Shown: positions 491 through 60,940 of the stretch, piece by piece | Layout of the letters: every line of letters starts with the position of its first letter | Numbering within the stretch: position 1 is the stretch's first letter | Source: Candidatus Woesebacteria bacterium | GTDB taxonomy: Bacteria; Patescibacteriota; Microgenomatia; UBA8517 | NCBI GenBank assembly: GCA_016432525.1 | Contig: CP066693.1 | Coordinates: 352,815 to 416,814, forward strand | Direction of reading: 5' to 3' | Length of the DNA stretch: 64,000 bases | Notes under the pieces: generated by a model | What the model was told of the DNA's origin: nothing | Seen by the model: the letters and a program-made list of their open reading frames with translations, nothing else | Databases searched by the model: none | Made by a program: the position numbers and the translations under genes

Positions 491-2875
491 CTACACCCAA
501 GGAAGTCCACGAACATACAACTGTTCGTAGTTGACCCTAGGCCGACGTCCAGTGCGGATAGCGTTAAGCATTTCCTCGCTGTCCCTTTTTGTTCCAATGT
601 AGAAACAAGGATCGATCTCCAACATCGGGGGTTTTCCTTGTCCCTGTTTCAGAAACTCTACAATTGCACGCCAAAAACCAATGAGCGGTGCTTGAAAACC
701 AGTTTGATAGAACTCAAACCGAACTGGTTTATTGAGACGATAGATGTCGCCAAGTTTCCGCCGAGTGATCTGATAACAAAGCTCGTCCACTTCAGCGCTT
801 GTCATTCCAGGCTGGGACACTTCAATGTTTCTGAACCAATACTGGTGAACCATTGAATCCATTTCTGGATGGCGCATCGAGATCATTCCCATCCGAATTG
901 GAGGTTGGCTTCTAAGCTGCTGCATATCAATGTCATTTCTTGGCTTCAGAACAAACAACTGAAATGGTCGTGCCTGTGATCCGTCTGTATAGACAATGTT
1001 TACTGCAATTTCGTGAGTTACATCCTTGGGTGGGCGTTCATAGACCATCTGACGAAGAGCCTTTGTGGCAATCATATGTGGAACCTCACTTAAGTTCACT
1101 CCATTAGCTTGTCCACGACGGCTTGAGCTTACTGCTCGCCAGAGATGCTTCACCACAATTTCATCGAAAGGCAAATTGCCATAATCGTTAATCCAGTCTG
1201 GAACAAACTGCCCAATAAAAGCTCTGGTGAGTTGTTCAACTGGAACCACTGTTTGTCCGACTGACTGAGTTTGTTGTGCATGTTTGTTTTGCACTGCAAT
1301 TACGACCTGGCCTTGTTGTTGCGCCTGTTCTAAAAACTGCAGTTTAAGCAGATTTTCGTGTTGAGGCATCCAAAACATTGGCAACAATCTCGTACTTCTT
1401 GCTTTCTCTGGAGATTGAATCCAAAGATTCGCAAGAACCGATAAAGTAAATTGGTCCAAAACAATACTTTCGTATTGTCCGGAGGCAAGTGCCTGATGTG
1501 CCAGAAATTGTATCCTGTCACAGACTAAATGGTAACGAGCGCGAACGTTGTGTTTGTTCACACCACGCCTAAGTTCGTATTCATCGTAGACTGCTTGTTC
1601 AGTTAGTTGAGATAACAGAAGTCGCCCAATCTGCAAGTTACGAGGAACAGCCACGAGCCTAATTTCGGTTGAATTGAAATCAAGCTTTGAAATAACTGCT
1701 TTGATCTGCTCACGTTCTTCGCCACTTCCTACATCATGTCGCATGGTTTCGCATTCGCGAAGCCGTCTCATTACTTCTGTATCCAACAAAGCAACGCTTT
1801 CAGGACAAATCATGAGTGTCACACCAATTTGTAAGAGTGCTTTTCGATAGCGCTCCAATTCTTGCTCTGATATTTCCAATACATTGCGTGGAACAAGCAA
1901 GAAAAAGTGTGTCGGCTTGTCAGCATAGGCTTGTTTAAGCGATTGCAGTGCATGTGCGTCAGTTTTGATGTAATACACAAAATCCGCCCAATCGCGCGCG
2001 CGAACCATAACTACTATCCGCTCTCCAGCTTGAACCACCAAATTACGATTTACGGTCCATGGAATGGGAGTTTCTTCCCTTGTTTCATAGATTTTTGCAA
2101 AATAGCGCGGGTCAAAGCCGATTGAGATATAACGTTCTGTTTCCTCAAGATCAGTGACCTTCCCGTCTTCTCCTATTATCTCTTTGAGTTTCAGAGTGCG
2201 GTCAAGTATTCCTCCCAAGACAATGTCTCGAGTACGCAAGACCACATCCTGATAAAGCAGATATTCTTCCGGCGTGATTTTGCCCAAAAGAATGTTCTCT
2301 GGAAATTCAGCCCCAAGCAAGAGAGATTCCATCTCCTCTTTTGTGTAGGTAAGATGATGAACCATATAGCAAACCCGCTCAGGAGAGACTTTGTCAGCCA
2401 AAGATAACTCCATTGCGCGCTGCGCTGCTTCAGGACTAAATTCCGTGAGTGCCAAGTATAGAAGCCTAGCTTCTTTTGGTGTAATGACGCCTAAGTCTAT
2501 ATGCTCCTGTTTCAGAAATACTCTGTATTCCTCTGCCATAAGAACAATGGCCGCAGGAACACTACCGCCCTCGACGTTTTTGGCAAACCTAAACCCCATC
2601 GAGGAACCACTTTTATAAGCTTGAGAAAGGATGTAAATAGTAGCAAATTTCGTTCCGCTCCAACCAGAAATAGCATCTGGATCGTAAGTCAGGAACACGT
2701 CTACTTCCATCACATTGTCTTTCTCCTGAAGCCTAGCAACTACCTTGAAAAGAATAACATCCCGAATTGCATGTCTAACAGGACGCCAATCCTTATCTCG
2801 AGGTGCTTTGCCAATGGAGCTAAACTGCTTGGTGAATCTCTCCAAATGCTGATCAAACAGTGCTAAAGCATCCAT
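491..2875 (-). CDS. Large hypothetical protein (794 aa), no recognisable catalytic or NTP-binding motif; G+C-rich island gene
   Basis: Long uninterrupted ORF with an AAGGAG Shine-Dalgarno before the ATG. No Walker A, HEPN or PD-(D/E)xK signature seen by eye. Internal repeat-like segments LVPRNVLEISEQELERY and AVPRNLQIGRLLLSQL. Much higher G+C than the flanks. Confidence 0.6.
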   Translation of the reverse strand: MDALALFDQHLERFTKQFSSIGKAPRDKDWRPVRHAIRDVILFKVVARLQEKDNVMEVDVFLTYDPDAISGWSGTKFATIYILSQAYKSGSSMGFRFAKNVEGGSVPAAIVLMAEEYRVFLKQEHIDLGVITPKEARLLYLALTEFSPEAAQRAMELSLADKVSPERVCYMVHHLTYTKEEMESLLLGAEFPENILLGKITPEEYLLYQDVVLRTRDIVLGGILDRTLKLKEIIGEDGKVTDLEETERYISIGFDPRYFAKIYETREETPIPWTVNRNLVVQAGERIVVMVRARDWADFVYYIKTDAHALQSLKQAYADKPTHFFLLVPRNVLEISEQELERYRKALLQIGVTLMICPESVALLDTEVMRRLRECETMRHDVGSGEEREQIKAVISKLDFNSTEIRLVAVPRNLQIGRLLLSQLTEQAVYDEYELRRGVNKHNVRARYHLVCDRIQFLAHQALASGQYESIVLDQFTLSVLANLWIQSPEKARSTRLLPMFWMPQHENLLKLQFLEQAQQQGQVVIAVQNKHAQQTQSVGQTVVPVEQLTRAFIGQFVPDWINDYGNLPFDEIVVKHLWRAVSSSRRGQANGVNLSEVPHMIATKALRQMVYERPPKDVTHEIAVNIVYTDGSQARPFQLFVLKPRNDIDMQQLRSQPPIRMGMISMRHPEMDSMVHQYWFRNIEVSQPGMTSAEVDELCYQITRRKLGDIYRLNKPVRFEFYQTGFQAPLIGFWRAIVEFLKQGQGKPPMLEIDPCFYIGTKRDSEEMLNAIRTGRRPRVNYEQLYVRGLPWV

Positions 2876-2981
2876 TTCGGATCTCCTTGTATCTAATTGT
2901 TAACGTACGAGAATGCTCTTTATGAGCTGAGGAATTATATCCTATATTTAATAAAATTGAAAACAGGTACGAAGGAACTAT

Positions 2982-4262
2982 TTACTTATCTAGGGATTCA
3001 CTCAGTACTTTTACTTGAGCAATTGTTTGGGACAAAGTGCTAAATGGGTGGAAAGTCATGTGTTTTTTTATTAAGTACGTATAATTTTTTGTCTGTTTAG
3101 CTATGGGAAAGAGATGATTAAAAGTTACGGCATAAAGTTTAGGTAAATCCTGATCTGGGTTTTCATAAGCTTCTATTAAAAAGGCGATATCAGCTATGTT
3201 ATTCAATACATCAGCCACTCTAGCTCGATAGACCTCGGGTGATAATTTTTTTAGTAGCTTGAATTCAATCCAGTATGGGTTAAACTCAATTGAGTCTATC
3301 CACTTTGAGTCTGAGTTCCAATTTGTTTCAAAGGATTTCAAGTCGCCAATAATATCACCTAATTCATGGATTAGTTCAACAATCTGTTGACGGCGATTAA
3401 CTTTCTTGTTAATGACTACATCAAAACTGTCTATTTCTTTGACATAATATGCTTGTGAGTTTCTATCTGCTAATTTAATTTTTATTCTATCCTTGAACTT
3501 ATCTAAAATAGGATATTCTCGAACCACAAAGTCTAAGACTCCATTAGGAAAAGTAAACTCAGGAAAATTTGGCAATAAACTAAGAAAGCCGTGCTTCCAC
3601 TGATTGTTAAACTGTGAATAAAACCAATTTGGAAGTTTAATTTCAGGGATTTGTTTTTGGCAGTAATTTATTACTTTTTCTCTATTGTCAAGAAAATATT
3701 GATAGTCTACTCTGTTTCCAGCCGACCTGTCAGTTTGATTTTTAAAACCTTTAGTTTTAGCCAGCTGATTACGAGACTTTACTAGATTGACATACCTTGG
3801 CTTTAATCCTTCAAATATTGGCAGGTAATCTTTAAGTATTTGAGCTTCGGCATCAGTTGCAACTCTTTTATCTAATTCATTCCAAATATCTACAATATTG
3901 AGGGTCTTCTCATTTAACCATTTGTCGTTTTCATTTGGCTCTGGCAAAACTTTCTCCATATATTCACTTTGAACCTTAATGTTTCTGTTCATTGCTTTTC
4001 TGTATTGTTCGTCTTTTTCCTCTAGTTCTCTTACAATTACTCCTATATTAGAGTTATATTCATTAAAAACAACGGCAGCATTAACCCAAAATGATACATA
4101 AGAAAATAGGCTTCGAGTCTTAGGACTTGGGAGCTTTTTAAAATTCTCTTCTGCATCATGAGCCGCTTTTTTAACAACTTCCATCAGAACATCAAGATCA
4201 ACCCGCTCATAATGTGCGGGTAACCCTTTACATATTATTTCTAACTGTGTTTTGCTAAACAT
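2982..4262 (-). CDS. Hypothetical protein (426 aa), low-G+C gene embedded in the high-G+C island
   Basis: Clean ATG-initiated ORF (MFSKTQLEIICKGLPAHYERVD...). K/N/E-rich composition like the host backbone. No known motif recognised. Confidence 0.55.
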   Translation of the reverse strand: MFSKTQLEIICKGLPAHYERVDLDVLMEVVKKAAHDAEENFKKLPSPKTRSLFSYVSFWVNAAVVFNEYNSNIGVIVRELEEKDEQYRKAMNRNIKVQSEYMEKVLPEPNENDKWLNEKTLNIVDIWNELDKRVATDAEAQILKDYLPIFEGLKPRYVNLVKSRNQLAKTKGFKNQTDRSAGNRVDYQYFLDNREKVINYCQKQIPEIKLPNWFYSQFNNQWKHGFLSLLPNFPEFTFPNGVLDFVVREYPILDKFKDRIKIKLADRNSQAYYVKEIDSFDVVINKKVNRRQQIVELIHELGDIIGDLKSFETNWNSDSKWIDSIEFNPYWIEFKLLKKLSPEVYRARVADVLNNIADIAFLIEAYENPDQDLPKLYAVTFNHLFPIAKQTKNYTYLIKKHMTFHPFSTLSQTIAQVKVLSESLDK

Positions 4263-4306
4263 ATTCGTATTTTACTTATTTTTTTACCTTTTCACAACAA
4301 AAGCCA

Positions 4307-4339
4307 GAGAAGGGGCAAAATGAACCAATACCCCTTCTC
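4307..4339 (-). terminator. Rho-independent terminator after the 182-aa gene
   Basis: GAGAAGGGG (4307-4315) pairs with CCCCTTCTC (4331-4339), a perfect 9-bp stem, followed on the minus strand by a T-rich tract (plus-strand aaaagcc). Confidence 0.5.
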
Positions 4340-4349
4340 CTTTGGGCGA

Positions 4350-4898
4350 TTACACCCTTGAACGGTCAATCTCAAAGTCAGGAGCAAACTTTGGATCCTG
4401 TGGACAGTTACCTCGCGTTATCGGATTTGAAACTTCTTCTCCTCTCTGATTCGCGATTATCACTTCCTCCACGCTTCTGTGCGGAATCCCCTCATTATCT
4501 ACAAACTGCAATTTGGTTCCAAAGATCATAGGCGTGAAATTGTGATTTGGCATTACAGGTACTACCTCACCATTAGGTCGACATTGGAAGGCCTTGACTG
4601 TATTGTCGTTATAAATCAACAGATTCACTCTGCCTTCAGGTATCATCCGAGTATCCGTACCTACGATGGTCTTCCCTGTATCAAGTTTGTCTTCCAGGGT
4701 CTGCATTGATTGCCAAAAATTGTCTCGATCAGCACTGAACTGTCTTGCAAGTTCGATCTCCGCTTTGTTCTGCGAAAGTTCGCCTTTAACACATGCCTCG
4801 ACAGTTTTATCTATTACTCCCCCTGCTTGTGCTTGGTATTCCCTCGCTGCTTCGTTGATTCCAGCGTTTTCTTTGACATTTCCGTCTTTGACACACAC
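4350..4898 (-). CDS. Hypothetical protein (182 aa), divergent from the helicase gene
   Basis: ORF with a GTG start (MCVKDGNVKENAGINEAAREYQAQAGG...). G+C-rich. Shares the 160-bp intergenic region with the helicase. No known motif. Confidence 0.5.
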   Translation of the reverse strand: MCVKDGNVKENAGINEAAREYQAQAGGVIDKTVEACVKGELSQNKAEIELARQFSADRDNFWQSMQTLEDKLDTGKTIVGTDTRMIPEGRVNLLIYNDNTVKAFQCRPNGEVVPVMPNHNFTPMIFGTKLQFVDNEGIPHRSVEEVIIANQRGEEVSNPITRGNCPQDPKFAPDFEIDRSRV

Positions 4899-5059
4899 AG
4901 ACCTTCTCCTTCTGACTCAATCTGACAAAGAACTTCCTTTCGGAATATTAAATTATACACTATGAGCTCATTTTGTGCTATCATACTGGCTATGCTTTTA
5001 CCGTGTAAACGGAAAAGCGCACATTAACAGTTGGGTTATTTAATACAAAGGAGTAAGAA

Positions 5060-8000
5060 ATGACTCGCGAATGGCAAGCGCCATGTAAGTGGCCAGGTTG
5101 TACGAATAAGATTGGCTACTCTGACTGTTCGTATCGCAATTCTCTTCAATATGGATTCTCAAGACCTGAATACTGTGAGAAACACCAAGAAGAAGAACAA
5201 AGGATGAGAAAGGGTGTAGCTACTCCGTATTTTCGTATACCTCGATTTATCGGTGAGATTCAACCTGGACCTCTGGGTCATATTAAACGCTCAGAAAAAA
5301 GGGTACACATCTCAACAGATAAAGCGAGCAAGTTTGATAAGTCTCGTTTTGGAGTAACTGAGGAAGATATCTACAGGATAGCTACTTGGTTTAAAGACCC
5401 TAATCATCGAGTACTTGTGGCTACAGGAGCAACAGGAGCAGGCAAAACAATTGCAGTACCCTATTGGTTCCTATATCCACCGCAGAAAATTGTGGATGAT
5501 TTCGGATCCGATTACTTCACACGGGATGGCCAAATTCTCCTAACGGAACCTCGAATTATCGCCTTAAAGAAAGCGATAACGTTCCTTGGGGAATTGATGG
5601 GTTCATCAATTGGAAGAGGTCAAGATCTTGGCTATTCATACAGTCAAGAGGACAAATCGGATTGGCGAAATGCAATCGATTTCACAACTGACGGAAAGTT
5701 GGTTAATTGGATCGTTGCAGGGAAAATCAGCCAATATGGATTTATCATCGTAGATGAGGCACATGAAGGTTCTGAGAACATCAAGATCATATTGCGACTA
5801 CTAAACGAGCGGATGAGTCTCTACCCTAACTTGAAAGTTGTAATCCTGAGTGCGACGATTGACACTGAAGAATTTCAGCGATATTTCGCAGGTCAAGGAG
5901 CCTCAATAATCGAGTTTGCAGGTAAGGCAAGGTACGACAGTAAAGGTAATGAAATATTACCCCCAGTTCGACACTTTACAACGCAAGACGAGAGCCTTCC
6001 TTATGAAGATCCCACAAAACTGGCTAAACCTCTAATGCAGAAAGCAAAAGAGAAAGCCCAGTGGCTGGTTGAAGAAATTGTGTCTGGAAGAAAAGAATGG
6101 GGAGATATTCTCATACTTCTTCACGGCAAAAATCCGATCAATCAGTTGGTCAAGGACCTTCAAGCGTGGGCTGGACAAGAAGAAAATCTGTCTCGCATTG
6201 TTGAGGTTTACCCTCTCTATCGTACAGAAAATGATGAGGAAGACCTCACTGCTGTGGCTGATGAAGATCCCTCCCCAGGGAAAATTCGCATAATTGTTTC
6301 GACAAATATCGCCGAGGCATCAGTAACAATTGATAGCCTTGTATATGAAATCGAAACAGGAGTTCAAATTCAGCCACAATTCAAAGCTGAAATAGGTGCC
6401 AACGAATATCCTGTGACTCTCATTAGCCGTGCTAACGCTACACAGCGTTTTGGCAGAGTGGGACGTACTAAAAACGGAGAGGTGTACACGCTCTATACAG
6501 AGCAACAGTTTAACGAGTTGTTTAGAGAGCAACCTCTCGATGTACTGGAGCGCTCAAACTTGGAAGATGTTCTTCTCAAAGTTAAAGCGGCAGGTATCTC
6601 AAATGTTCAAACGGGCTGGTTAGGTAACGCACCTAAGGAGGAAATTGATCGTTCAACTAAACAATTGGTCGACTCAAACATTCTCACTGCAGAAGGGTCA
6701 TTAACATCATATGGCGCACTAGTGCGAATATTTTCGTATCCACCAAGGCTCATTGATATGTTGATGGCTGCTGATGATTTAGGTTGCTCGGTGGAAATGG
6801 CTACGATTTTGCCGGTCATCAAGAATGACGGAACTCGTAGACTTTTGTCTTGGAGATTCAGTTGGGACGCTTATACAAAGCGAATTGCTTTCAAGCGTCA
6901 TAGCGCTCTTATGGCTGGATGCAAGGACGATATGGAGTTTATACTCAAGCTTTACAAAGCTTGGGGTGAGCTTCCTTGGCTAGACCAAAACCAGTTAAGA
7001 GAGCTTTCAAAGGAAGAACTTAACACTCTGAGGAAACAGTGGGCAGATATTCACTTTGTTAATCACAAAGTGTTGCTCGTTATCGCGAAAGACAGAGATG
7101 AAGCTCTCGAACGCCTAGGTGTTAGCACCAAAGAGGAAGGCTCGAGATCGATTAATCTGTCACAGATTAGCCGTGTACGAACTCTTTTGCGGTCAATGCT
7201 AACAGAAACAGAGGTTAGTGCAGCTTCAAATCCATATCGGTATGTTGCAGATATTGAACCACAGGCAGGAACACTTGCTACTTGCAGTCTGATTTCAGAC
7301 GAACAAAGAGCAGTAAAGTCTGATTCTTGGCTTGAAATTCCTGCTTTGGAAGAAGAGACCGATGGAACATTCTCACGTTTTTTCATCGATCAGGTATATC
7401 CAGTGGGCTATCGGTTTGCAGCTAAGTTGGAGCAGCAAGGAGATGGATTCGCGTGGATTAAAACCACAAGAAACCTTACCCGAGCTCAAGCTCTGGCTCA
7501 ACAAACTGTCACTCTCGCTGAAGAAGAACCGGAGGATTTACTTGAAGATGAGATCCTAGAGGTAGAAGAACCAGAAGAAGCTTCAGGCATATCACTGGCT
7601 GATATTCCGATTCAATACTGGAATGTTGATTGCAAACAAGCAGTTCGCACGGCAAGCTCACTCGTAGGAGAGGTCATTGTTGAAATAACAGATTTCTACT
7701 TCGAAGAAGGGCAAGTGCCAGTTGTGATAGCAGAAGTTGTTCCTCAACCGGAACCGTTTGATGTATTTGTCAAACGGCATCGTTATAGCGATGAAGTCAC
7801 AGTAGAAGTAAGAGAAATCTTGCAGTTTGAAGGAGACTACTCTGCGGCCTTAGTTGTGCGTGATATTGAAACCAATCTTGAGGTTCTTGTTGAACCACAA
7901 GATATGAGCTTTACTCGTCAAGCACAGGCTGTAACTCAGATACCAGTGGGCGCTCGCCTAATTCTTAATGTCGAAAATATCGACCTTGAGACACGTCGGG

Positions 8001-9286
8001 TTCGATTGACGAACTGGGAAAAAGTCGAAAATACAATCACCGACCGCTTTATCACTACTGAAGGGGATGATGAGACCACTATTGCGAAAGCTACAGTAGT
8101 CGATATTCACGATGACGGCAAAGTCATGTTTGCTCTTGACCTTGGTCAAGCAACACTTGATATCTGCATCATCATATCGGTATATGGGATTAAGCTTCCC
8201 AAAAACTCAAGCGAATTTAAAATTGGAGAGCAAGCAACACTGAAAGTGTACCGTCGATCAAAAGCAAGCTCGTATGCAGATCTCCCTTCTCTTCCTTCGA
8301 AAGCTGTTTCGAAAATCAGCTCTGAGGAAAGACCAAACGAACTTTCGTGGAAACGAGGAGTGCTACGGTTTACAGGAAGAATGACATACGACAGACTCTA
8401 TGAGTTTAGAACAATTGCAGACAGGGATCTTGACTTCCAAAGGGCTTTAGAGAAACTGTACTGGCATTCAAATTTTGTGTACGCTGCACAATTCGTTGAC
8501 AGTGAGTTGTTTACCCATTTGCAAACAACTCTTGCGGTCGGTACTACTATCAACAACGCTATAGTTGTTGAAATAAACAACGGCGGAGTTGTTGTCGAAT
8601 TGGGTCGAGGACTCAAAGGATTTGTGCCCAGAAGCAAAATTATGGAAGGTCGTGGAAACCTCATCGACTTTGTCACTGTCGGTTCCACTGTACAGGTAAG
8701 GGTGCTTGAACATCGCATCGAACGGGCTCAACCTTTACTTGAAATCATTGGTGGAATTGTAAATCCACTTGAACAGCTTGTTGTTGGACGTACATACAAA
8801 GGCATTGTCGAAGAAGTCAATCAAAACGGAGTCTTTGTTAACTTGTCGCCGACAATCACTGGTCGTGTGAAGCACAATGAAGTTTATCGTGGAGGTACTA
8901 AAACAGAGGATTTGTTCAAGGCTGGAGACAATGTAATCGTGAAGGTTCTTTCTGTTCATCCCAGCAGACATAGCGTTGAACTCAGCATGAAAATTCCTGA
9001 ATACGATCCATCGGCAAAACTCAAGCAAGGGGCCATCGTTGAAGGAATTGTAGCAAGCCAACAAAGCTATGGATACTTTATTACCATAGCCATGGGTATC
9101 GATGGACTATTGCGTCACGAAAACATTCCAGAAGTAAGCACTGGTTTTCTTGGATTAGGCGGAAAAGCTAAGCCCAACATTGCAGTTGGTATGAAACTAC
9201 AAGTCAAAATCATCGCGATCGGTCCAGACCGCAAAAATCCAGCCAAAACCGTCTATGGTTTGGAGTATGTTCGTCAATTGAAGTAA
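5060..9286 (+). CDS. DEAH/RHA-family (HrpA-like) RNA helicase with N-terminal zinc ribbon, acidic linker and tandem C-terminal S1 RNA-binding domains (1408 aa)
   Basis: Motifs in order: Walker A GATGAGKT, motif II IVDEAHE, motif III SAT, motif V TNIAEASVTI, motif VI QRFGRVGR. WH/HA2-like segment YGALVRIFSYPPRLIDMLMAADDLGCSVEMATILPVI. N-terminal CKWPGC...CSYRN...CEKH. Acidic stretch EEEPEDLLEDEILEVEEPEE. Two S1-like OB folds (GRTYKGIVEEVNQNGVFVNLSPTITGRVKHNEV and GAIVEGIVASQQSYGYFITIAMGIDGLLRHENI). Strong SD aaaggag before the ATG. Confidence 0.8.
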   Translation: MTREWQAPCKWPGCTNKIGYSDCSYRNSLQYGFSRPEYCEKHQEEEQRMRKGVATPYFRIPRFIGEIQPGPLGHIKRSEKRVHISTDKASKFDKSRFGVTEEDIYRIATWFKDPNHRVLVATGATGAGKTIAVPYWFLYPPQKIVDDFGSDYFTRDGQILLTEPRIIALKKAITFLGELMGSSIGRGQDLGYSYSQEDKSDWRNAIDFTTDGKLVNWIVAGKISQYGFIIVDEAHEGSENIKIILRLLNERMSLYPNLKVVILSATIDTEEFQRYFAGQGASIIEFAGKARYDSKGNEILPPVRHFTTQDESLPYEDPTKLAKPLMQKAKEKAQWLVEEIVSGRKEWGDILILLHGKNPINQLVKDLQAWAGQEENLSRIVEVYPLYRTENDEEDLTAVADEDPSPGKIRIIVSTNIAEASVTIDSLVYEIETGVQIQPQFKAEIGANEYPVTLISRANATQRFGRVGRTKNGEVYTLYTEQQFNELFREQPLDVLERSNLEDVLLKVKAAGISNVQTGWLGNAPKEEIDRSTKQLVDSNILTAEGSLTSYGALVRIFSYPPRLIDMLMAADDLGCSVEMATILPVIKNDGTRRLLSWRFSWDAYTKRIAFKRHSALMAGCKDDMEFILKLYKAWGELPWLDQNQLRELSKEELNTLRKQWADIHFVNHKVLLVIAKDRDEALERLGVSTKEEGSRSINLSQISRVRTLLRSMLTETEVSAASNPYRYVADIEPQAGTLATCSLISDEQRAVKSDSWLEIPALEEETDGTFSRFFIDQVYPVGYRFAAKLEQQGDGFAWIKTTRNLTRAQALAQQTVTLAEEEPEDLLEDEILEVEEPEEASGISLADIPIQYWNVDCKQAVRTASSLVGEVIVEITDFYFEEGQVPVVIAEVVPQPEPFDVFVKRHRYSDEVTVEVREILQFEGDYSAALVVRDIETNLEVLVEPQDMSFTRQAQAVTQIPVGARLILNVENIDLETRRVRLTNWEKVENTITDRFITTEGDDETTIAKATVVDIHDDGKVMFALDLGQATLDICIIISVYGIKLPKNSSEFKIGEQATLKVYRRSKASSYADLPSLPSKAVSKISSEERPNELSWKRGVLRFTGRMTYDRLYEFRTIADRDLDFQRALEKLYWHSNFVYAAQFVDSELFTHLQTTLAVGTTINNAIVVEINNGGVVVELGRGLKGFVPRSKIMEGRGNLIDFVTVGSTVQVRVLEHRIERAQPLLEIIGGIVNPLEQLVVGRTYKGIVEEVNQNGVFVNLSPTITGRVKHNEVYRGGTKTEDLFKAGDNVIVKVLSVHPSRHSVELSMKIPEYDPSAKLKQGAIVEGIVASQQSYGYFITIAMGIDGLLRHENIPEVSTGFLGLGGKAKPNIAVGMKLQVKIIAIGPDRKNPAKTVYGLEYVRQLK

Positions 9287-9299
9287 CCCAGCTAGTTTC

Positions 9300-9320
9300 A
9301 CAGGTAGGCCCTGTTTTTTT
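9300..9320 (+). terminator. Putative rho-independent terminator after the helicase gene
   Basis: ACAGG-TAGGC-CCTGT stem-loop followed by TTTTTTT. A longer alternative pairing AGGCCCTG...CAGGGCTT is also possible. Confidence 0.4.
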
Positions 9321-9520
9321 AGATCAATATGATTCTAAAGAGCAGGGCTTTTCTATTTCTAAAATGGTTGTTGTGCAACTCTTAGAGGAAGTTAATCTTA
9401 TTTTTTATCAATACCCTCCAAATAACTACATAGTTGCTTCAAGGTTCGAATCCAAACTTACGGGTTAACACGGGCTAGAACGGATTAGTGCCATTCCGTC
9501 AATGGCTATAGGATATTTAG

Positions 9521-9591
9521 CTGCGGGATAGGGATTCGAACCCCAATATGCAGATCCAGATTCTGCTGTCCTACCATTAGACGATCCCGCA
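9521..9591 (-). tRNA. tRNA-Gln (anticodon CUG)
   Basis: Minus-strand sequence TGCGGGATCGTCTAATGGTAGGACAGCAGAATCTGGATCTGCATATTGGGGTTCGAATCCCTATCCCGCA folds as a cloverleaf. U1:A72 and G73 discriminator are typical of bacterial tRNA-Gln. Anticodon loop AUCUGGA. T-loop TTCGAAT. CCA is not encoded. Confidence 0.8.
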
Positions 9592-25445: not shown

Positions 25446-27506
25446 CTATTTACTTGCTTCAGAAGCGCCGATCATGCCCTGCAAAAGTTCAGGCATGTAC
25501 CAGATCTGCTGATCGGTCGCAACCTCGCCATTCGTGAGAAAAACTTTGCCGCTCTGATAGTTCAGAGGACCAGTGAACAGGTTGACCTTACCATTACCCA
25601 TATCATTAACAAAACCTACCAAAGTGACCTTCTGGTCAGCCGTCAGGGCCGGACCGTAGGCAAAACCCACATTGGACTCATCGGGATCATTGATATTCGA
25701 CCATTTAGGTCCGTTCCAATCCCAGTTAGAGTGCCAAACGCCAGCTCTAAACTCCGCAATAGCCTTAACATAGGCAGGTCCCCAGTTAAAGTACGGTACT
25801 CCCAGGCACGCACCAGCTCCTAGATCACAGGCTCCTTGATAGTCATACGGCACAGCGAAAATTTTCTCGCCCCTGTCGACACGCTGCTTGGTGACAACTA
25901 TCGCTTCAGGTGTGTCGATACCTGACATGACTACATCAGTGCCATTGTCAAAAAAGCCGTTAGCAACTTCAGTCGGGTTCAAGGTGACTCCTGGAATGTT
26001 GAACCAGAAGCCAATCCATTTTACTTCGAACCGAAGAGAGTTGGGATCACCCCCTCTGTACTTTTGAAAACAGTAGCGTACGCCAAGGTAAGCAGCTGAA
26101 GCCAACCGTCGTGTTTCATCGTTGACGAGAGGTCCAAGATAGCCAATTTTATTGGTCTTGGTTGCCAATGCGGCAGCGCATCCACCAACCATCTTCATAT
26201 ATTCCATGCGGCCCATGAAATTCCCGAGATTCTTAGGCACATCGCCTTTCAGGACAGCATCACCAGAAACGTTGATGAACGTGATATCTGGATATTTTTT
26301 TGCAACGACCGTTGTATCAGCCTGGAAAGCATCAGAGGTGGTGATGATCAGTTTAGCTCCTTCTGTCACCATGTCTTGGACCACCTGATCTAGGGTAGTA
26401 TTAGGTCGGTCTGCCGAATTGAGTTTATCCAAGGTGACATTCTTCACGCCAGGAATCTTGCTTTCAGCATAGAGAACTGCACGAAAATGTGCTTCGCTCC
26501 ACCCTTTGTCTTCCTGTGGCCCAACCAAAATAATCCCAACTGTGGTTGTCTTTGAGCTGTCTGAGTATTCCACCCAACGTTTCAAAGTCGCAAGAAAGAC
26601 CTTGGCTGCATTATCAGCGGCAAGTTGGAAAAACGTCCCTATCTCATTTGCTCCTGGCCCTCCGCCTGCTAGATCCGAAAGAGACCTGAAGATGAGAAAT
26701 GGAACCTGGTTAACATAGGCAACATGCGCAACAGCACTGGATTCCATATCCAAGCTATCAGCTTGCCATGTTTTCCATGCCCACTCTCTAAAAGCTGCGT
26801 TGTCAACGAATGTCTGTCCCGCAACTCCATTTCCGCCGACTTTTACAATAGGCTTACTTTGAAGGCACGTTTTCTTCTGTCCACGTTCAACACAATCAGC
26901 CAGTGTAACATCAGCAGTAGCTGCCTTTGCAACAGCAAGCATCTGTGGATCAGTCTGGAACCAGTAAATGCTCTCACTTGTATCTACAGGAACGCGACTG
27001 CTCGTTACTGAAATAGGTTGTGGAAACATGAAATTGAAATTTGGAAGAGTTGCGTCTACGCCCGAGTAATTTCCAGGCGTGTCCTCGCGGGCAAAATGCA
27101 TCTCCTGATACTGCGCCCATTGCGATGGTATAACAACATCACCGATGTTTAAATTCGGATTCACACCTCCTGCGATTCCTGAAAAGAAAATCCGTTCGAT
27201 GTTGAAAAGATCCAGAGCAACTTGCGTTGTCATCGCGGCATTCACCATAGATACACCTGAAAGGTAAGCCACAACAGGCTTCCCATACAGCGTACCTTTA
27301 GTAAACGTTCTACCGTTAACAACAACTGCACATTCTACTCGAACCTCCTTCAACCAGAGAGTAAGCTCCGATCCAAAGGCCGACTCCAGTGCAATGCGTT
27401 GCACTTTGTCGGGTTGGCAAGCTGTTTGGCCTGCTGCCTGTGACGTGGTCACAAGTCCCAACATTACTACAACAACCACAAAAAGTGAAAACCATCTACG
27501 AGCCAT
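25446..27506 (-). CDS. Secreted fusion protein: MTA/SAH-nucleosidase-like (PNP_UDP_1) domain + BMP/PnrA-family nucleoside-binding domain
   Basis: Likely start at ATG 27506 (GGAGG SD; MARRWFSLF signal peptide); the track ORF begins 12 nt upstream. N-terminal domain: FSGIAGG, GDVVIPSQ, LDMESSAVAHVAYVNQVPFLIFRSLSDLAGG (compare MtnN VEMEATAIAHV...RAISD). C-terminal domain: KKYPDITFINVSGD, KIGYLGP, GTDVVMSGIDTP, typical of BMP family ABC substrate-binding lipoproteins. About 50% G+C by eye. Confidence 0.7.
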   Translation of the reverse strand: MARRWFSLFVVVVVMLGLVTTSQAAGQTACQPDKVQRIALESAFGSELTLWLKEVRVECAVVVNGRTFTKGTLYGKPVVAYLSGVSMVNAAMTTQVALDLFNIERIFFSGIAGGVNPNLNIGDVVIPSQWAQYQEMHFAREDTPGNYSGVDATLPNFNFMFPQPISVTSSRVPVDTSESIYWFQTDPQMLAVAKAATADVTLADCVERGQKKTCLQSKPIVKVGGNGVAGQTFVDNAAFREWAWKTWQADSLDMESSAVAHVAYVNQVPFLIFRSLSDLAGGGPGANEIGTFFQLAADNAAKVFLATLKRWVEYSDSSKTTTVGIILVGPQEDKGWSEAHFRAVLYAESKIPGVKNVTLDKLNSADRPNTTLDQVVQDMVTEGAKLIITTSDAFQADTTVVAKKYPDITFINVSGDAVLKGDVPKNLGNFMGRMEYMKMVGGCAAALATKTNKIGYLGPLVNDETRRLASAAYLGVRYCFQKYRGGDPNSLRFEVKWIGFWFNIPGVTLNPTEVANGFFDNGTDVVMSGIDTPEAIVVTKQRVDRGEKIFAVPYDYQGACDLGAGACLGVPYFNWGPAYVKAIAEFRAGVWHSNWDWNGPKWSNINDPDESNVGFAYGPALTADQKVTLVGFVNDMGNGKVNLFTGPLNYQSGKVFLTNGEVATDQQIWYMPELLQGMIGASEASK

Positions 27507-27631
27507 ACAAACCTCCATACTGCCGTTTATCCAACCATTGGATATTTGCTAGACAGCAGTATTTTGGGTATAAAACCTTACGCCCAAAAGACTGCTGTCT
27601 AAAGGTACTTTATTTGTTAAAGAGCACAAAA

Positions 27632-28335: not shown

Positions 28336-28411
28336 GGCCCCATCGTCTAGTGGTCTAGGACGCCAGGTTCTCATCCTGGTAACCTGGGTTCGACTCCCAG
28401 TGGGGTCACCA
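28336..28411 (+). tRNA. tRNA-Glu (anticodon CUC), CCA encoded
   Basis: GGCCCCATCGTCTAGTGGTCTAGGACGCCAGGTTCTCATCCTGGTAACCTGGGTTCGACTCCCAGTGGGGTCACCA. 7-bp acceptor, D-loop AGTGGTCTA, anticodon loop UUCUCAU, T-loop TTCGACT. Confidence 0.8.
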
Positions 28412-30062
28412 ATCGTTCCTTTGAATTTTCAGCTTCACTGTTTAAGTCGAATATAGGTGTTAATTTGGGTGTTCCACTAACTAGTTCGGCATAAGTCGGC
28501 GTTCTCTCAAAAGTTAACTCAAAAAGTTGTTGCTGTCGAAACATGTCAGGCTCGTTTATTAGCAATTCCGAAGGGTGTTCCACTAAATGCCTTGCATATT
28601 TAAGCTTAGTTTTTATATCTTGTTCGCTTTCTTCCTTTTTATCCCTAATTGACCTGGACTCTTGAATCTTATGCTCTAGTTCCTCAATTTTTTCTTCGAC
28701 TTTCGAAATAGCTATTTTATTACTTAAAAACCTCAAGCTGTCAGCAAGTTCGCTTTGTTGAGCTAAAAGTTTAGCCACAGTCTCGCTTGCAACCTCACTT
28801 TCCTTTATAGACCCCGTTCGTTTTTCTTTCCACTTTTCGATAAATACATATTCAAACAACCTTAAAAATGAATCATCCAGTTTAAGATTTATGATGAAGT
28901 CCTCCATCACCTTGTGAACTTCGGACCTCTTTACTCTCCAACTTTCATGACCTCTATCGCAATGATATGCAGGCCGAGGAATTCCGTTCTTTCCAGTCGA
29001 TGCACTTGCCTTAGGAGTCTTATAACACATGGGGCATAAAATCATCTTTTTGTATGGGTAATAAGGGTTATCTTTCAATCTGATCTGTTTCTTTCGATTG
29101 TATTCGATTGAAGCTTCACTGTTTTTAATCTCAAGGTAGACTTTCCCTCTATTTGCCTTATTAAAAGTCTCGATTGAAACCAATCCCTTAAATTTAGCTA
29201 AGACAGGTATATGTTTAGTCCACTTTTCACAGATAACACCTGCATATATTGGTCGAGAAATGTAACTTTGAAACTGTTTTACAGTTAAAGGGACTCCTCC
29301 TATTTTACCTATCGGCTTTTTGGTCTTTGGATCTCGACGGATTCTCATACGAGAAATAAAACCTAGCTGATTTATTCGCTTAACAATTTGTTTGTCATCA
29401 AAAACTCCTTTTTCTCTCAGTTCAAACATTTTAATAATAAAGAAACCTTCTTTGTTATGTTCTTCGAGTACATTTCTTTTGCCATCAGTTTCTGTCTCGA
29501 TTTTTATATTTTGAAAACCATAGGGTGCACTGCGATTCCAGTATCCTCTTCTTGTATATGAGATTTCTTTGCTGATCATTCGGGTCAAAATCGTTCGTAC
29601 TTCCTCTTTTGAGGATTCAGCCTTCCTAAGTTCTTCAGCTTCTGATGGTGAATAAACGCTCCATGAGTACTCCATGCCCAAGTCTTCTAGTGTGTTCCTT
29701 TCTTTTTTGACAGTTTCTTCAATATCTTGAATTTCGATATTGTTTTCTTTTAGTAAATCCTTTAAGCGAGCATAATCTTTCGCCCCTCCACGAGTAAAAC
29801 GAGATATATCCTTAAAAAGCAAAACATCTATGTTGTTCTGGGGGTTGATACAGTAATCTAAAACCTCTTCGAAAAATACTCTTTCTTTTATTCGACCACT
29901 TTCGACTAATGGGAACACTTTTACTCTTTCCCATCCGTTCTTCTCTATGACACGACTACAGTCATCAACCTGACCGTCGACAGAATCTCCATATGTAACT
30001 TGCTTTGTTCCTGAAGCTCTCGCTAAGACTACAGCTCTTTTATGCTCTCTGGGTATGTTCAT
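28371..30062 (-). CDS. Large serine recombinase (serine integrase)
   Basis: N-terminal resolvase fold (AVVLARASGTKQ with catalytic Ser; RFTRGGAKDYARL). Recombinase domain. Zinc-ribbon cysteines CPMCYK...YHCDRGH. C-terminal coiled-coil region. The last 41 nt overlap the tRNA-Glu gene on the opposite strand. Confidence 0.8.
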   Translation of the reverse strand: MNIPREHKRAVVLARASGTKQVTYGDSVDGQVDDCSRVIEKNGWERVKVFPLVESGRIKERVFFEEVLDYCINPQNNIDVLLFKDISRFTRGGAKDYARLKDLLKENNIEIQDIEETVKKERNTLEDLGMEYSWSVYSPSEAEELRKAESSKEEVRTILTRMISKEISYTRRGYWNRSAPYGFQNIKIETETDGKRNVLEEHNKEGFFIIKMFELREKGVFDDKQIVKRINQLGFISRMRIRRDPKTKKPIGKIGGVPLTVKQFQSYISRPIYAGVICEKWTKHIPVLAKFKGLVSIETFNKANRGKVYLEIKNSEASIEYNRKKQIRLKDNPYYPYKKMILCPMCYKTPKASASTGKNGIPRPAYHCDRGHESWRVKRSEVHKVMEDFIINLKLDDSFLRLFEYVFIEKWKEKRTGSIKESEVASETVAKLLAQQSELADSLRFLSNKIAISKVEEKIEELEHKIQESRSIRDKKEESEQDIKTKLKYARHLVEHPSELLINEPDMFRQQQLFELTFERTPTYAELVSGTPKLTPIFDLNSEAENSKERLVTPLGVEPRLPG

Positions 30063-58174: not shown

Positions 58175-60940
58175 ATGTCAACTCTTAAACGTTTGTTGCC
58201 TTTTGTAACTCTGTCGGTGTTACTTCTAATTCAGATGAAAATTCAAGCTCAAGGGGGAACACCTCATCCACCCAATCTTTTAAGTCCTGCCGATGGGACA
58301 ACTCTTAATTCTGGATCAGTCCAGATATGTGCTACAGCTTCTGATAATATTACAACTGAAATCCAATTCGAACTTTATCCAAGCTCGGAAAATGATTTTC
58401 AAACTGGATATCAGAAGGCAAATCCACAAGGTAGTCCTACATGCACAACCATTAATGTTCCCAATGGAACGTATGGCTGGCACGCAAGAGGAAAGAATGG
58501 CGCTGGAGAAGGAGGTGCTTCACCTGAGTGGAAATTCATAGTTCAAGTTGGAAATGCACCACCTCCCACTCGTGTTCCAGGTCCACAACAGCCAACAGCT
58601 GTTCCTGATGTTGGGCCGGATTTTAGCTATAGCTTTAGTCCAGCCAATGGAACAAATGTTGGACAGACTGTGACAATCCACATTACCGTGAATTGTAGTC
58701 CAAATTGTGGTGAGGTTGATACTACACCAAGTTGCGGTGGTGGCGATCAGCCAGTTAATACATCTGGAGATTTTGATTATCATTGGAATACAAATGGTTG
58801 TAATGCTGGTGGGCAATCAATTTCGACTTGTTCAAAGGCAATCTCTGATCCACAAGGCACAAGAAGAAAATGCAAGAATCCCGGCTACGAGCTGATTGGT
58901 TCTGCACCTTCTGGAAGTCCTGTCATCAATAGCTTTACAACAGACAATACTACGACGACAGGAGAATGCACCACGCTTCGTTGGTCAACAAGCAATGCGA
59001 CATCCGTTGTCATTAATGGTCAAAGCGTTGCTGGAAGTGGCTCTATGCAAGTCTGTCCAAAGACAAGCCAACAATTTGGACTGCGGGCGAGTAACGGTAA
59101 TGGAAATGATGCAACAGCTAACGTTGTCATTCAAGTGAATAATTCTTCAATTCCACCCGTAAGCTCTAGTTCAAGCGGCGGGGGACCACAAGTTGGACCT
59201 GCTCAAGATAGTCAAGTTCCACAAAACGCAAAGCAAAACAACACTCCAGGCGGTGTTGATCTAATTGTTTATTGCTATGCAAAAGGGTTTACCAATGCAG
59301 GTAATGACAACAACAGTCGTGATGGTTGGTACTGTAATGGTCCAACTTTTTGGAGAGTGGATTGGGGACAAGCCTGTTTCGACGTCTATGGTCCTGATTA
59401 TATCGCTGTCAATAGCGATAACAGCAGGAATGGCTGGAGATGTATGCCAAAGGGCAACAGTGGAGAACAAATAAATCCACCTCCTCAACAGCAAAATTCA
59501 AGTTGCGGGCCTTCAGTAAGTAGACTGCATCCTGGAGATATTGCATTGGTCTCAGATTTCGATCCGGATCCACTACATGTTTACAATACTTCGAATTTAA
59601 ACTCTGGCGAAATTTTCAGTGTTTCCATTCGAGAAAAAGTAAGCATCGTCTCAGGTCCAAAATGTGCAGACAATCGCACTTGGGTTGAAATTGGCTACAA
59701 TGGTAAAGATGGTTGGGCAATTGAGGTAAACCGAAATGGTACTTACAATCTAATTCCAAACGGAATGCCTCTTCCAGGCTCATCTCAGCCCAACAATCAA
59801 TCCAACAACCAACAAGAATCCTCAAATAATTGTGGTGGTTTATCATCACAGTTATCGATAGGACTATCTGTTGTTGTCACATCTGTAGGTGATGATCTGG
59901 TTTTACACACAAACCCAGGTGTATCGCAACCCCAGATGGACATCATATCTACCGGTACACAAGGATCAGTAGTTGGAGGTCCAACTTGCGCTGACGGATA
60001 TCGTTGGTGGCAACTGAATATCAAAGGAAAGACTGGATGGACGGCAGAAGGAGATAGTAAGTCATACTGGTTAGAAGCAAGCCAATCCGCTCAAGTTCCT
60101 CAACCCACAGCGGTTCCATCAGTCAGACCAACGGTAACAACAAAATCACAACAGAATCAAAATACAAAACAAACAACAATAAATTGTCTTGAAATTGGAT
60201 ACTCTCCCGGAATCGTACCTCAGGCATACGCAGCAGAACTGTGGTGTACTCAATATGTCGAAAAAATCTATCCAGATTTAGTCGATAGCTGTTGGGGCGG
60301 TGCCTATCCTGATGCATATCTCTGGGCACAAAAAGCAAGAGATACTGCACAGAAATGCAATTTAGAAGTATCCGATTCAAGTGATATTCGAAATGGTGAC
60401 ATCGTAGTCTGGGGACCGAACTGCGGATTTACAAGTGAAAAAGCTGGACCAATAGGCCACGTTGCGGTTGTCAAATCTCATGAAAATGGAACAATTACCG
60501 TCGATGAAGCTAAATGGGAAGTTTCCCAACCCACAAGACGCGTAGATCCAAGTTGTATGACTTTTATCCATATTCTCAAAAAACAAAACGGAAGTAATCA
60601 GCAATCGGAAAATCAACAAAAAAATACTTCCGAAAATGGTATTGCCAGTGGAAACACAAAGGCAACAAATATCAGATGGAGTTTTTGTATATGGTGTACG
60701 TCAAACGCCTGGATCGAATTCCAATTACCAGCCGGTCACTATGACAAGACAAATTTTAGACTAAGATTCACAGGAAAAGACATTATCGTGGACGATTTCT
60801 CTATCATCTCTGGTGATTCTGTAGATAAAATTTCTCTACATGTCAATGCAGAAGTGATCCAACAACAAATTGATGCTGGCCTAGGTGACAAACTTAATAA
60901 TCCGGACAATTGGATTCTGTACTATGTAATCACAAAGTAA
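58175..60940 (+). CDS. Large secreted multidomain protein with C-terminal CHAP amidase/peptidase domain and two SH3-like domains
   Basis: Signal peptide. Ig/FN3-like Thr/Gly-rich repeats. Two SH3_3-like segments (GDIALVSDF...GKDGWAIE; GDDLVLHTNPG...GKTGWTAE). CHAP catalytic Cys (WCTQYVEKIYPD) and His (GDIVVWGP...GPIGHVAVV). G+C visibly above the flanks. Confidence 0.7.
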   Translation: MSTLKRLLPFVTLSVLLLIQMKIQAQGGTPHPPNLLSPADGTTLNSGSVQICATASDNITTEIQFELYPSSENDFQTGYQKANPQGSPTCTTINVPNGTYGWHARGKNGAGEGGASPEWKFIVQVGNAPPPTRVPGPQQPTAVPDVGPDFSYSFSPANGTNVGQTVTIHITVNCSPNCGEVDTTPSCGGGDQPVNTSGDFDYHWNTNGCNAGGQSISTCSKAISDPQGTRRKCKNPGYELIGSAPSGSPVINSFTTDNTTTTGECTTLRWSTSNATSVVINGQSVAGSGSMQVCPKTSQQFGLRASNGNGNDATANVVIQVNNSSIPPVSSSSSGGGPQVGPAQDSQVPQNAKQNNTPGGVDLIVYCYAKGFTNAGNDNNSRDGWYCNGPTFWRVDWGQACFDVYGPDYIAVNSDNSRNGWRCMPKGNSGEQINPPPQQQNSSCGPSVSRLHPGDIALVSDFDPDPLHVYNTSNLNSGEIFSVSIREKVSIVSGPKCADNRTWVEIGYNGKDGWAIEVNRNGTYNLIPNGMPLPGSSQPNNQSNNQQESSNNCGGLSSQLSIGLSVVVTSVGDDLVLHTNPGVSQPQMDIISTGTQGSVVGGPTCADGYRWWQLNIKGKTGWTAEGDSKSYWLEASQSAQVPQPTAVPSVRPTVTTKSQQNQNTKQTTINCLEIGYSPGIVPQAYAAELWCTQYVEKIYPDLVDSCWGGAYPDAYLWAQKARDTAQKCNLEVSDSSDIRNGDIVVWGPNCGFTSEKAGPIGHVAVVKSHENGTITVDEAKWEVSQPTRRVDPSCMTFIHILKKQNGSNQQSENQQKNTSENGIASGNTKATNIRWSFCIWCTSNAWIEFQLPAGHYDKTNFRLRFTGKDIIVDDFSIISGDSVDKISLHVNAEVIQQQIDAGLGDKLNNPDNWILYYVITK

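Follow-up and report, generated by a model that had tools for sequence, protein, structure and literature searches.

Helicases of the DEAH/RHA group gain their biological roles through accessory domains and partner proteins, and among the bacterial members HrpA, which acts in ribosome rescue, is to our knowledge the only one with a defined mechanism. HrpA rescues collided ribosomes by engaging the mRNA, and a lineage-specific C-terminal region delivers its motor to the target (PMC11419001). We describe here a DEAH/RHA helicase encoded in a 64,000-nucleotide (nt) stretch of a Candidatus Woesebacteria genome (assembly GCA_016432525.1, contig CP066693.1, positions 352,815 to 416,814 of the forward strand), the whole of which is referred to below as the window. 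An earlier reading of the bare sequence, the original prediction, had picked out this gene for its order of domains, namely a zinc ribbon, a DEAH/HA2 core, an acidic linker and tandem S1 domains, and had suggested an RNA-targeting enzyme. The reading favoured here, to which we give a probability of roughly 0.6, is that the protein would act as an ATP-driven DEAH/RHA translocase moving 3' to 5' on single-stranded RNA and as the motor of a multi-protein module, possibly one belonging to a conflict system linked to mobile elements.

With E. coli HrpA (PDB 6ZWW, 9GFT) the window helicase shares RecA1, RecA2, a winged helix and a helical bundle, alignable over amino acids (aa) 115-666, and also a large lineage-specific C-terminal region (PMC11419001). 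It differs in carrying a zinc knuckle where HrpA has an N-terminal three-helix bundle and an S1 array where HrpA has its DUF3418 alpha+beta/Hook region, and in having dedicated operon partners. Its best matches in both sequence and fold are the eukaryotic Prp43/DHX15, Prp22/DHX8, Prp2 and Prp16 helicases, at an identity of only about 25%: phmmer against PDB gave E 4e-51 for Prp43 and 2e-34 for HrpA, and Foldseek against PDB placed Prp43, Prp16, Prp2, DHX8, Prp22 and DHX15 on top (E about 1e-36 to 5e-40, about 620-650 aligned columns), with template-modelling scores of 0.6-0.77 that are highest when taken on the target. No G-patch cofactor of the kind used by the eukaryotic spliceosomal and ribosome-biogenesis helicases is involved in the window system. 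The resemblance to Prp22/DHX8 that had been noted holds for the combination of S1 with a DEAH core, but as a convergence of domain content only, since the spliceosomal enzyme has a single N-terminal S1 domain and the window protein has five C-terminal S1-type folds in a bacterium. Scores against curated family models fall far below their cut-offs, with 171.3 bits against 722.75 for HrpA (TIGR01967), 157 against 1400 for NF008348, 152.2 against 546.15 for HrpB (TIGR01970) and 101.1 against 577 for rpsA/bS1 (TIGR00717, aligned over aa 1153-1392), and no Pfam match to DUF3418 (PF11898) or HrpB_C (PF08482) was found in the helicase. An architecture unlike that of HrpA and HrpB had thus been rightly foreseen, and the protein is not an orthologue of HrpA, HrpB or Prp22, nor is it a bS1.

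The motor itself is intact. All of the motifs quoted in the original prediction lie where they were expected (GATGAGKT at aa 123-130, DEAHE at 232-236, SAT at 264-266, TNIAEASVTI at 415-424 and QRFGRVGR at 462-469), TEPRI, TDGKL and LILLHG complete the set I, Ia, Ib, II, III, IV, V and VI, and in an alignment of 24 family members these motifs are invariant or nearly so. Pfam recognizes DEAD, Helicase_C and three S1 matches. The protein exceeds the size limit for one structure model and was predicted by AlphaFold as two overlapping halves, aa 1-800 and 701-1408, from family alignments. The first of these, with a mean predicted local distance difference test score (pLDDT) of 83.4, shows RecA1, RecA2, the winged helix and a helical bundle extending to about aa 713, with the strands of a RecA2 beta-hairpin between motifs V and VI. 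The region that had been called HA2 is undetected by the Pfam HA2 models, but it is backed by the HrpA and Prp43 alignments and by the model: the helices of aa 502-713 have a pLDDT of 80-93, the TIGR01967 alignment extends to aa 666, and hhalign matched the winged helix and helical bundle to canonical HrpA-like profiles. From motifs and model together, the protein is a member of the DEAH/RHA group of helicase superfamily 2 with a complete motor. At 5426-5449 the window has GATGAGKT in place of the family consensus GPTGSGKS, a difference at a position that is at least 90% conserved.

At the N-terminus, the cysteine cluster formed by CKWPGC (aa 9-14) and CEKH (aa 39-42) is real and conserved throughout the family. 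C9, K10, C14, Y20, G32, S34 and C39 are invariant among Microgenomates, actinobacterial-plasmid and other homologues, and position 42 is either cysteine or histidine. The earlier assignment as a zinc ribbon does not fit the predicted topology: AlphaFold builds aa 1-52 (pLDDT about 80-85) from a beta-hairpin (2-8/17-21) and two helices (22-30 and 40-52), with C9 and C14 in or beside the hairpin loop and C39 and H42 at the start of a helix, so that the predicted domain would be a knuckle plus helix, treble-clef-like, not a ribbon of two hairpins. A role of this putative zinc domain in protein interaction is as possible as one in nucleic-acid binding. A disordered spacer separates it from RecA1 in the model.

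The conservation of this domain bears on the start of the gene, since the corresponding NCBI protein (P0001, 'S1 RNA-binding domain-containing protein [Candidatus Woesebacteria bacterium]', 100% identical) has only 1360 aa and begins at Met49, 48 codons late (window 5060-5203), which truncates the zinc knuckle. Because the family conserves the residues that this gene model leaves out, the upstream ATG is, on comparative grounds, the correct start; the Shine-Dalgarno sequence in front of it supports the same choice. The reading frame from this ATG is uninterrupted in the open reading frame (ORF) listing, and an extension of the NCBI gene model by 48 codons is warranted.

Beyond the motor, aa 715-805 gave a low-confidence hhalign alignment with the canonical OB fold (pLDDT 50-84), and Pfam OB_NTP_bind (PF07717) has no match in the helicase. 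The acidic run that had been noted after the core, EEEPEDLLEDEILEVEEPEE, lies at aa 821-840 (nt 7520-7579), within a linker predicted to be disordered (pLDDT below 50 over aa 809-848); the linker is rich in acidic residues and variable in length in most aligned family members and is basic in P0036. What had been taken for about 250 aa of low-similarity sequence is instead a stretch of about 435 aa (715-1150) that is structured and includes two further S1-like barrels. In the second half-model (pLDDT 78.6 overall, 73-94 in the middle region) it comprises a beta-rich part (859-996), a barrel (1004-1074) and an alpha/beta unit (1095-1146); hhalign matched the two degenerate barrels to the canonical S1 repeats with probabilities of 77% (905-998, E 2e-5) and 70% (1000-1082, E 4e-5), their modelled topology is beta1-3/alpha/beta4-5, and an S1 hidden Markov model (HMM) gave a weak match at aa 937-985. 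Two S1/OB folds had been proposed for the last 250 aa. The S1 assignment is borne out by Pfam, by our own HMM and by the model, but the number is three canonical domains in the last 255 aa or so: Pfam S1 (PF00575) matches in three stretches (E 1.2e-20; S1_RRP5 was also matched), the purpose-built HMM gives independent E-values of 7e-23, 5e-30 and 6.5e-20, the domains recognize one another in hhalign with probabilities of 98.5-99.4%, and the model forms barrels at 1163-1231, 1245-1309 and 1326-1406. Among the proteins of the window, the HMM detected no S1 protein other than the helicase. For the C-terminal half, Foldseek ranked the complete E. coli bS1 first (9gut_B, E 7e-23, 677 columns), and there, as here, early repeats of a tandem array are degenerate and later ones canonical; bS1 is a free-standing protein, whereas the window array is fused to a helicase. 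By sequence comparison and model, the tail is a bS1-like array of five S1-type folds, two degenerate followed by three canonical.

The full architecture is not the oddity it had seemed to be. It is common to about 40 clusters (90% identity) in a search of 5.8 billion proteins, at 31-79% identity and with a sharp drop in score thereafter, and the named members come from Woesebacteria, Collierbacteria and the 'Microgenomates group' (partner protein A, described below, also occurs in Blackburnbacteria). When the homologue encoded on plasmid pB of Paenarthrobacter ureafaciens was used as the query, at least 394 clusters were found at E <= 1e-40; where named, these are mostly Actinomycetota among the matches listed, and S1, KH or Jag_N tails occur in most of the listed matches. 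Within the family there is little or no variation at the zinc-ligand positions, in any of the helicase motifs or at many positions of the middle region, and the N-terminal signature C-x(2-4)-C ... C-x2-(C/H) is present in the window helicase. The actinobacterial proteins (WP_243543038.1, and WP_331752837.1 of a Streptomyces plasmid) share the zinc knuckle, DEAH core, middle region, RNA-binding tail and upstream partners; they differ in their length of 1560-2160 aa, in a split and co-directional A, in the presence of Jag_N and KH in their tails and in being often borne on plasmids or on regions resembling integrative and conjugative elements (ICEs), and they carry names such as 'S1 RNA-binding domain-containing', 'helicase-related' and 'KH domain-containing protein'. 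As judged by these alignments, the helicase belongs to a distinct clade defined by an N-terminal CCC(C/H) zinc knuckle, a DEAH core and an RNA-binding tail. A scan of a genome collection with the family alignment keyed on the generic Walker-A pattern and returned only ordinary HrpA-like loci, and a literature search for the zinc-knuckle DEAH/S1 architecture or for the gene module found nothing relevant.

The original prediction treated the helicase as a lone unusual enzyme and missed its most informative context, a conserved set of neighbouring genes. In the window, three minus-strand genes encoding proteins of 182, 426 and 794 aa diverge from the helicase gene, and the last of these, protein A, is found upstream of the helicase and in the opposite orientation in all six Microgenomates-type loci with adequate flanking sequence (the window, L001, L002, L004, L005 and L021), its copies in the other five being 45-81% identical. 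Accessory families B, C, D and E occupy the space between A and the helicase in combinations that vary by locus, while the genes outside the module differ in every genome compared, and the helicase and A families co-occur on many of the same contigs. A profile of A found 907 representatives (50% identity) in 1.84 billion proteins, and its N-half (positions about 5-387) is found in proteins of about 390-550 aa and its C-half (positions about 408-796) as separate proteins of about 330-420 aa. Because the two halves occur as separate proteins in this search, A of the window is a gene fusion, joining two modules that other bacteria encode separately. In L007, L022, L023/24, plasmid pB and a Streptomyces linear plasmid, the helicase is immediately preceded by split A genes (L025, which is pB, NZ_CP094491.1, and L026 are among the split-A loci); the gene order in L007 is B, A_N, A_C, helicase, and in L022, L023/24 and both plasmids the frames lie end to end or overlap. 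The helicases of these loci, including that of pB (1962 aa, WP_243543038.1, 'S1 RNA-binding domain-containing protein'), keep the N-terminal cysteine cluster, and their tails vary between S1, KH and Jag_N.

Metagenomes scanned independently with A as the seed yielded 43 loci, and a helicase is visible in 19 of them, in the same direction as A in 14 and divergent in five. In the 14 same-direction loci it usually starts about 30-170 nt past the match to A, the distance being about 600 nt in L075, where the match is partial. The contigs of the other 24 loci are short on the side where a helicase would be expected, and in the seven that were examined at the level of single ORFs the sequence stops within the accessory operon or a short way upstream of it. 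Among the 43 loci we saw none that contradicts the linkage of A and helicase, with the reservation that what counted as enough flank was judged after the fact. The helicase and its 'dark' partners make up a conserved multi-gene module, which is a more novel element than the helicase itself. Table 1 gives the coordinates of its parts.

Table 1. Features of the helicase gene and of its partner genes in the window (positions in nt; residue numbers refer to the encoded proteins).
Feature	Positions	Strand	Remarks
Partner protein A, 794 aa	491..2875	-	N-half about aa 1-390, C-half about aa 400-794
Accessory protein E, 426 aa	2982..4262	-	49% identical counterpart in L002 only
Accessory protein, 182 aa	4350..4898	-	Shares only the N-terminal domain of accessory family B
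Divergent intergenic region, 161 nt	4899..5059		Between accessory operon (-) and helicase (+)
Shine-Dalgarno sequence AAGGAG	5048..5053	+	6 nt 5' of the ATG at 5060
Helicase gene	5060..9286	+	1408 aa + stop; Zn knuckle, DEAH/RHA core, acidic linker, five S1-type folds
Zinc-knuckle domain, aa 1-52	5060..5215	+	Candidate ligands C9, C14, C39, H42
RecA1 (about aa 84-300) and RecA2 (about aa 301-492)	5309..6535	+	Motifs I-VI including DEAH and SAT; RecA2 beta-hairpin
Winged helix (about aa 493-560) and helical-bundle/ratchet-like region (about aa 561-714)	6536..7201	+	Model, HrpA/Prp43 alignments
Region at the DEAH OB-fold position, aa 715-808	7202..7483	+	Doubtful OB remnant
Acidic linker, predicted disordered, aa 809-858	7484..7633	+	15 D/E, 0 K/R
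Family-specific middle region	7634..8515	+	Small beta unit 859-904; degenerate S1-like barrels 905-998 and 1000-1082; alpha/beta 1085-1152
Three canonical S1 domains, aa 1153-1233, 1236-1316, 1318-1408	8516..9283	+	Pfam, hhalign, model
Terminator-like hairpin, then T run	9300..9321	+	Begins 14 nt past the helicase stop codon

A number of clues to the role of this module come from the relatives of its partners. In bacterial conflict systems, domains of the SUKH, NB-ARC and TsiV-like kinds typically serve as sensor or immunity modules, and among 93 representatives of the A N-half an N-terminal SUKH (SMI1/KNR4) domain is present in 38, NB-ARC in two and a TsiV-like region in two. The SUKH domain, known from the immunity and adaptor proteins of polymorphic-toxin systems, sits on relatives of the A N-half and not on A of the window, and the paper on the SUKH superfamily makes no mention of a helicase (PMC3113570). 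Some of the loci are also found among genes for conjugative transfer. On pB, mobC and the relaxase gene come a short way upstream of the module, and a coupling protein is encoded on its other side; TrwC and TraG/TrwB are beside it on the P0047 contig; VirB3/TrbC and an integrase flank it in L023/24; and a relaxase and a coupling protein do so in L020. Because of these partner domain fusions, and because the module often resides on conjugative plasmids or in ICE-like regions, the data suggest a function in genetic conflict or in mobile elements over one in core RNA housekeeping. About 6 kb upstream of the module, pB also encodes an RHS-repeat toxin as well as a site-specific integrase (NZ_CP094491.1, 1259-5758), and on the metagenome contig of L022, which is not of the candidate phyla radiation (CPR), a 1222-aa DUF6094 methyltransferase-plus-helicase (2364-6032) lies just upstream of the split-A/helicase operon.

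That the helicase would be directed at RNA is the best reading of the tail, as the original prediction had proposed, for homologues exchange S1, KH and Jag_N in this place and the fold of the window tail matches bS1; S1, KH and Jag_N are all classical binders of single-stranded RNA. A mechanism can be proposed by analogy with HrpA and with the structurally characterized DEAH/RHA enzymes, in which RNA substrate, polarity, complex formation and biological role are all inferred from sequence, models and gene context. The five-domain bS1-like tail, held on its flexible acidic linker, would capture single-stranded RNA with high avidity and hand it to the motor, feeding the 3' end into the cleft between RecA1 and RecA2, and ATP-driven translocation in the 3' to 5' direction would go on to unwind RNA or to strip RNA-protein complexes. 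The linker might also act as an intramolecular mimic of nucleic acid that keeps tail or motor closed until activation. Protein A, as a sensor or an enzyme, would together with B most likely recruit, gate or complement the motor, and the zinc domain may serve as the docking point; such a regulated complex is suggested because the zinc domain is invariant and the partners are obligatory. A more specific and tentative version of this proposal is that helicase, A and the small accessory proteins may form an RNA-targeting conflict system not recognized before, acting in immunity or counter-immunity, that is shared by conjugative elements of actinobacteria and by the ultra-small bacteria of the CPR. 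Here a SUKH-type sensor and a 'dark' enzyme might control a giant DEAH motor that takes hold of RNA with its bS1-like tail and, for example, strips or stalls the transcripts or ribosomes of an invader or of the host.

A number of observations weigh against this proposal, in part or as a whole. Most Microgenomates loci have no mobile-element or transfer genes nearby, and the guanine-plus-cytosine (GC) content of the Microgenomates modules follows that of the host genome, at 0 to 9 points above it; both are equally compatible with a resident cellular function. No nuclease, protease, toxin or other known effector domain was found in any component, and a known defence system was searched for and rejected, PADLOC-DB v2 giving only weak Cas3 matches to the helicase core (E 4e-5) and nothing for the three partners. 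S1/OB folds and some DEAH/RHA motors also accept single-stranded DNA. In DEAH helicases an OB fold normally closes the RNA tunnel, and such a fold is not confidently present in this one, a further difference from HrpA. Within the motor, the window has DEAHEG where the family has DEAHER (5753-5770) and QRFGR where it has QRWGR (6443-6466), both at positions that are at least 90% conserved. The two half-models were predicted separately and hence carry no interdomain geometry, and the family stands in databases only under automatic names, its members being uncharacterized both biochemically and genetically.

The same data have to be weighed against other explanations, and the one that comes closest is a housekeeping helicase of the Microgenomates lineage, with a part in ribosome biogenesis, ribosome rescue or mRNA decay like that of HrpA or the degradosome helicases, its S1 tail being aimed at mRNA or ribosomes and the neighbouring genes being mere cofactors or unrelated. 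A core whose nearest relatives, Prp43 and HrpA, work on ribosomes and ribonucleoproteins (PMC11419001), a bS1-like tail, and a chromosomal position among ordinary genes with a GC content that tracks the host would all agree with this. It is nevertheless unlikely in view of the patchy distribution, with only those 40 or so clusters having turned up among 5.8 billion proteins, the strict linkage to dark partners with SUKH, NB-ARC and TsiV-like relatives, and the occurrence of the same module on conjugative plasmids or ICE-like regions in other phyla. Moreover, CPR bacteria keep a bS1 of their own, with three or four domains (PMC9297842), which is also the reason that replacement of bS1 by the helicase in the CPR was ruled out.

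The transfer genes beside the module on pB, on the P0047 contig, in L023/24 and in L020 could also mean that it serves a conjugative element at the level of DNA, with motor and OB folds working on the transferred single strand, for example in establishment, in anti-restriction or in the processing of the T-strand, and that the Microgenomates copies are domesticated remnants. The methyltransferase-helicase that adjoins it in L022 and the acceptance of DNA by OB/S1 folds and some DEAH/RHA helicases, which is general knowledge, are in line with such a function; the exchange of S1, KH and Jag_N in the tails is instead typical of RNA binders, transfer genes are missing at most Microgenomates loci, and the module was found on only two of the 72,556 plasmids of PLSDB, which does not make it a standard function of conjugation, so that we regard a DNA-directed role as distinctly improbable. 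Hardly credible at all is a stand-alone, domain-shuffled helicase whose 794-aa neighbour is coincidental and whose zinc cluster and acidic run have no specific function. Helicase and A are indeed divergently transcribed in the window and do not form one transcript, but this explanation is contradicted by the co-occurrence data, the linkage being kept across rearranged contexts and phyla and with fused as well as split A; the zinc ligands are invariant over the extended family, and when genome pairs are compared for both genes, A proves the better conserved of the two (81% against 55% identity in one such pair).

The RNA-directed module favoured here would matter in several respects. The clade constitutes a third, well-populated branch of bacterial DEAH/RHA helicases, set apart by a zinc domain, interchangeable S1/KH/Jag_N tails and obligatory partners without a match to any known family. 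If the module is indeed a conflict or mobile-element system, it would represent a new RNA-directed mechanism and would be among the few multi-gene accessory systems common to the CPR and free-living Actinomycetota. A tractable entry is offered by two plasmids that carry it, a conjugative one of 68 kb from a culturable Paenarthrobacter and one from Streptomyces.

With respect to the partner genes, the 182-, 426- and 794-aa proteins have no match in Pfam, NCBIfam or PADLOC, and PHROGs gave nothing meaningful, its sole match being a weak one of the 426-aa protein E to a PHROG of unknown function. Profiles of the whole A family, of its N-half and of its C-half found nothing below E 0.06 among PDB sequences. 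The invariant residues of the A C-half (YxDGS, RH, N, S, D and QTG) suggest an enzyme. The 182-aa protein is 39% identical to L002_184 and 41% identical to the N-terminus of L002_264. A promoter-like site (a consensus match only) runs on the minus strand from 5009 to 4980 within the divergent intergenic region. The gene for E has a GC content of 0.33-0.36 against 0.43-0.45 in the rest of the module; with this low value and its single counterpart, it may be a later insertion.

The immediate flanks of the module have a GC content of 0.30-0.33, and the module abuts a tRNA gene, tRNA-Gln(CTG) at 9520-9591 (-), which lies 234 nt past the helicase stop codon with its 3' end facing the module. A genomic island or recent transfer is unsupported: no att-like direct repeats were found around the module within the window, the gene for a Lon protease in the same window also has a GC content of about 0.40, and module GC tracks the host elsewhere. 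A phage origin was likewise rejected, as a search of IMG/VR turned up no relative of A and, for the helicase, only generic DEAH cores of giant viruses. Elsewhere in the window, the gene for a 563-aa serine recombinase with a resolvase N-terminal domain (28336-30062, -) overlaps tRNA-Glu(CTC) (+) and may mark an integrated element. A 921-aa ORF (58175-60940, +) in a stretch with a GC content of 0.43 has no Pfam match at E <= 1e-5, and a 690-aa protein (25446-27518, -) joins PNP_UDP_1 to a PnrA/Bmp-like substrate-binding domain, an unusual fusion.

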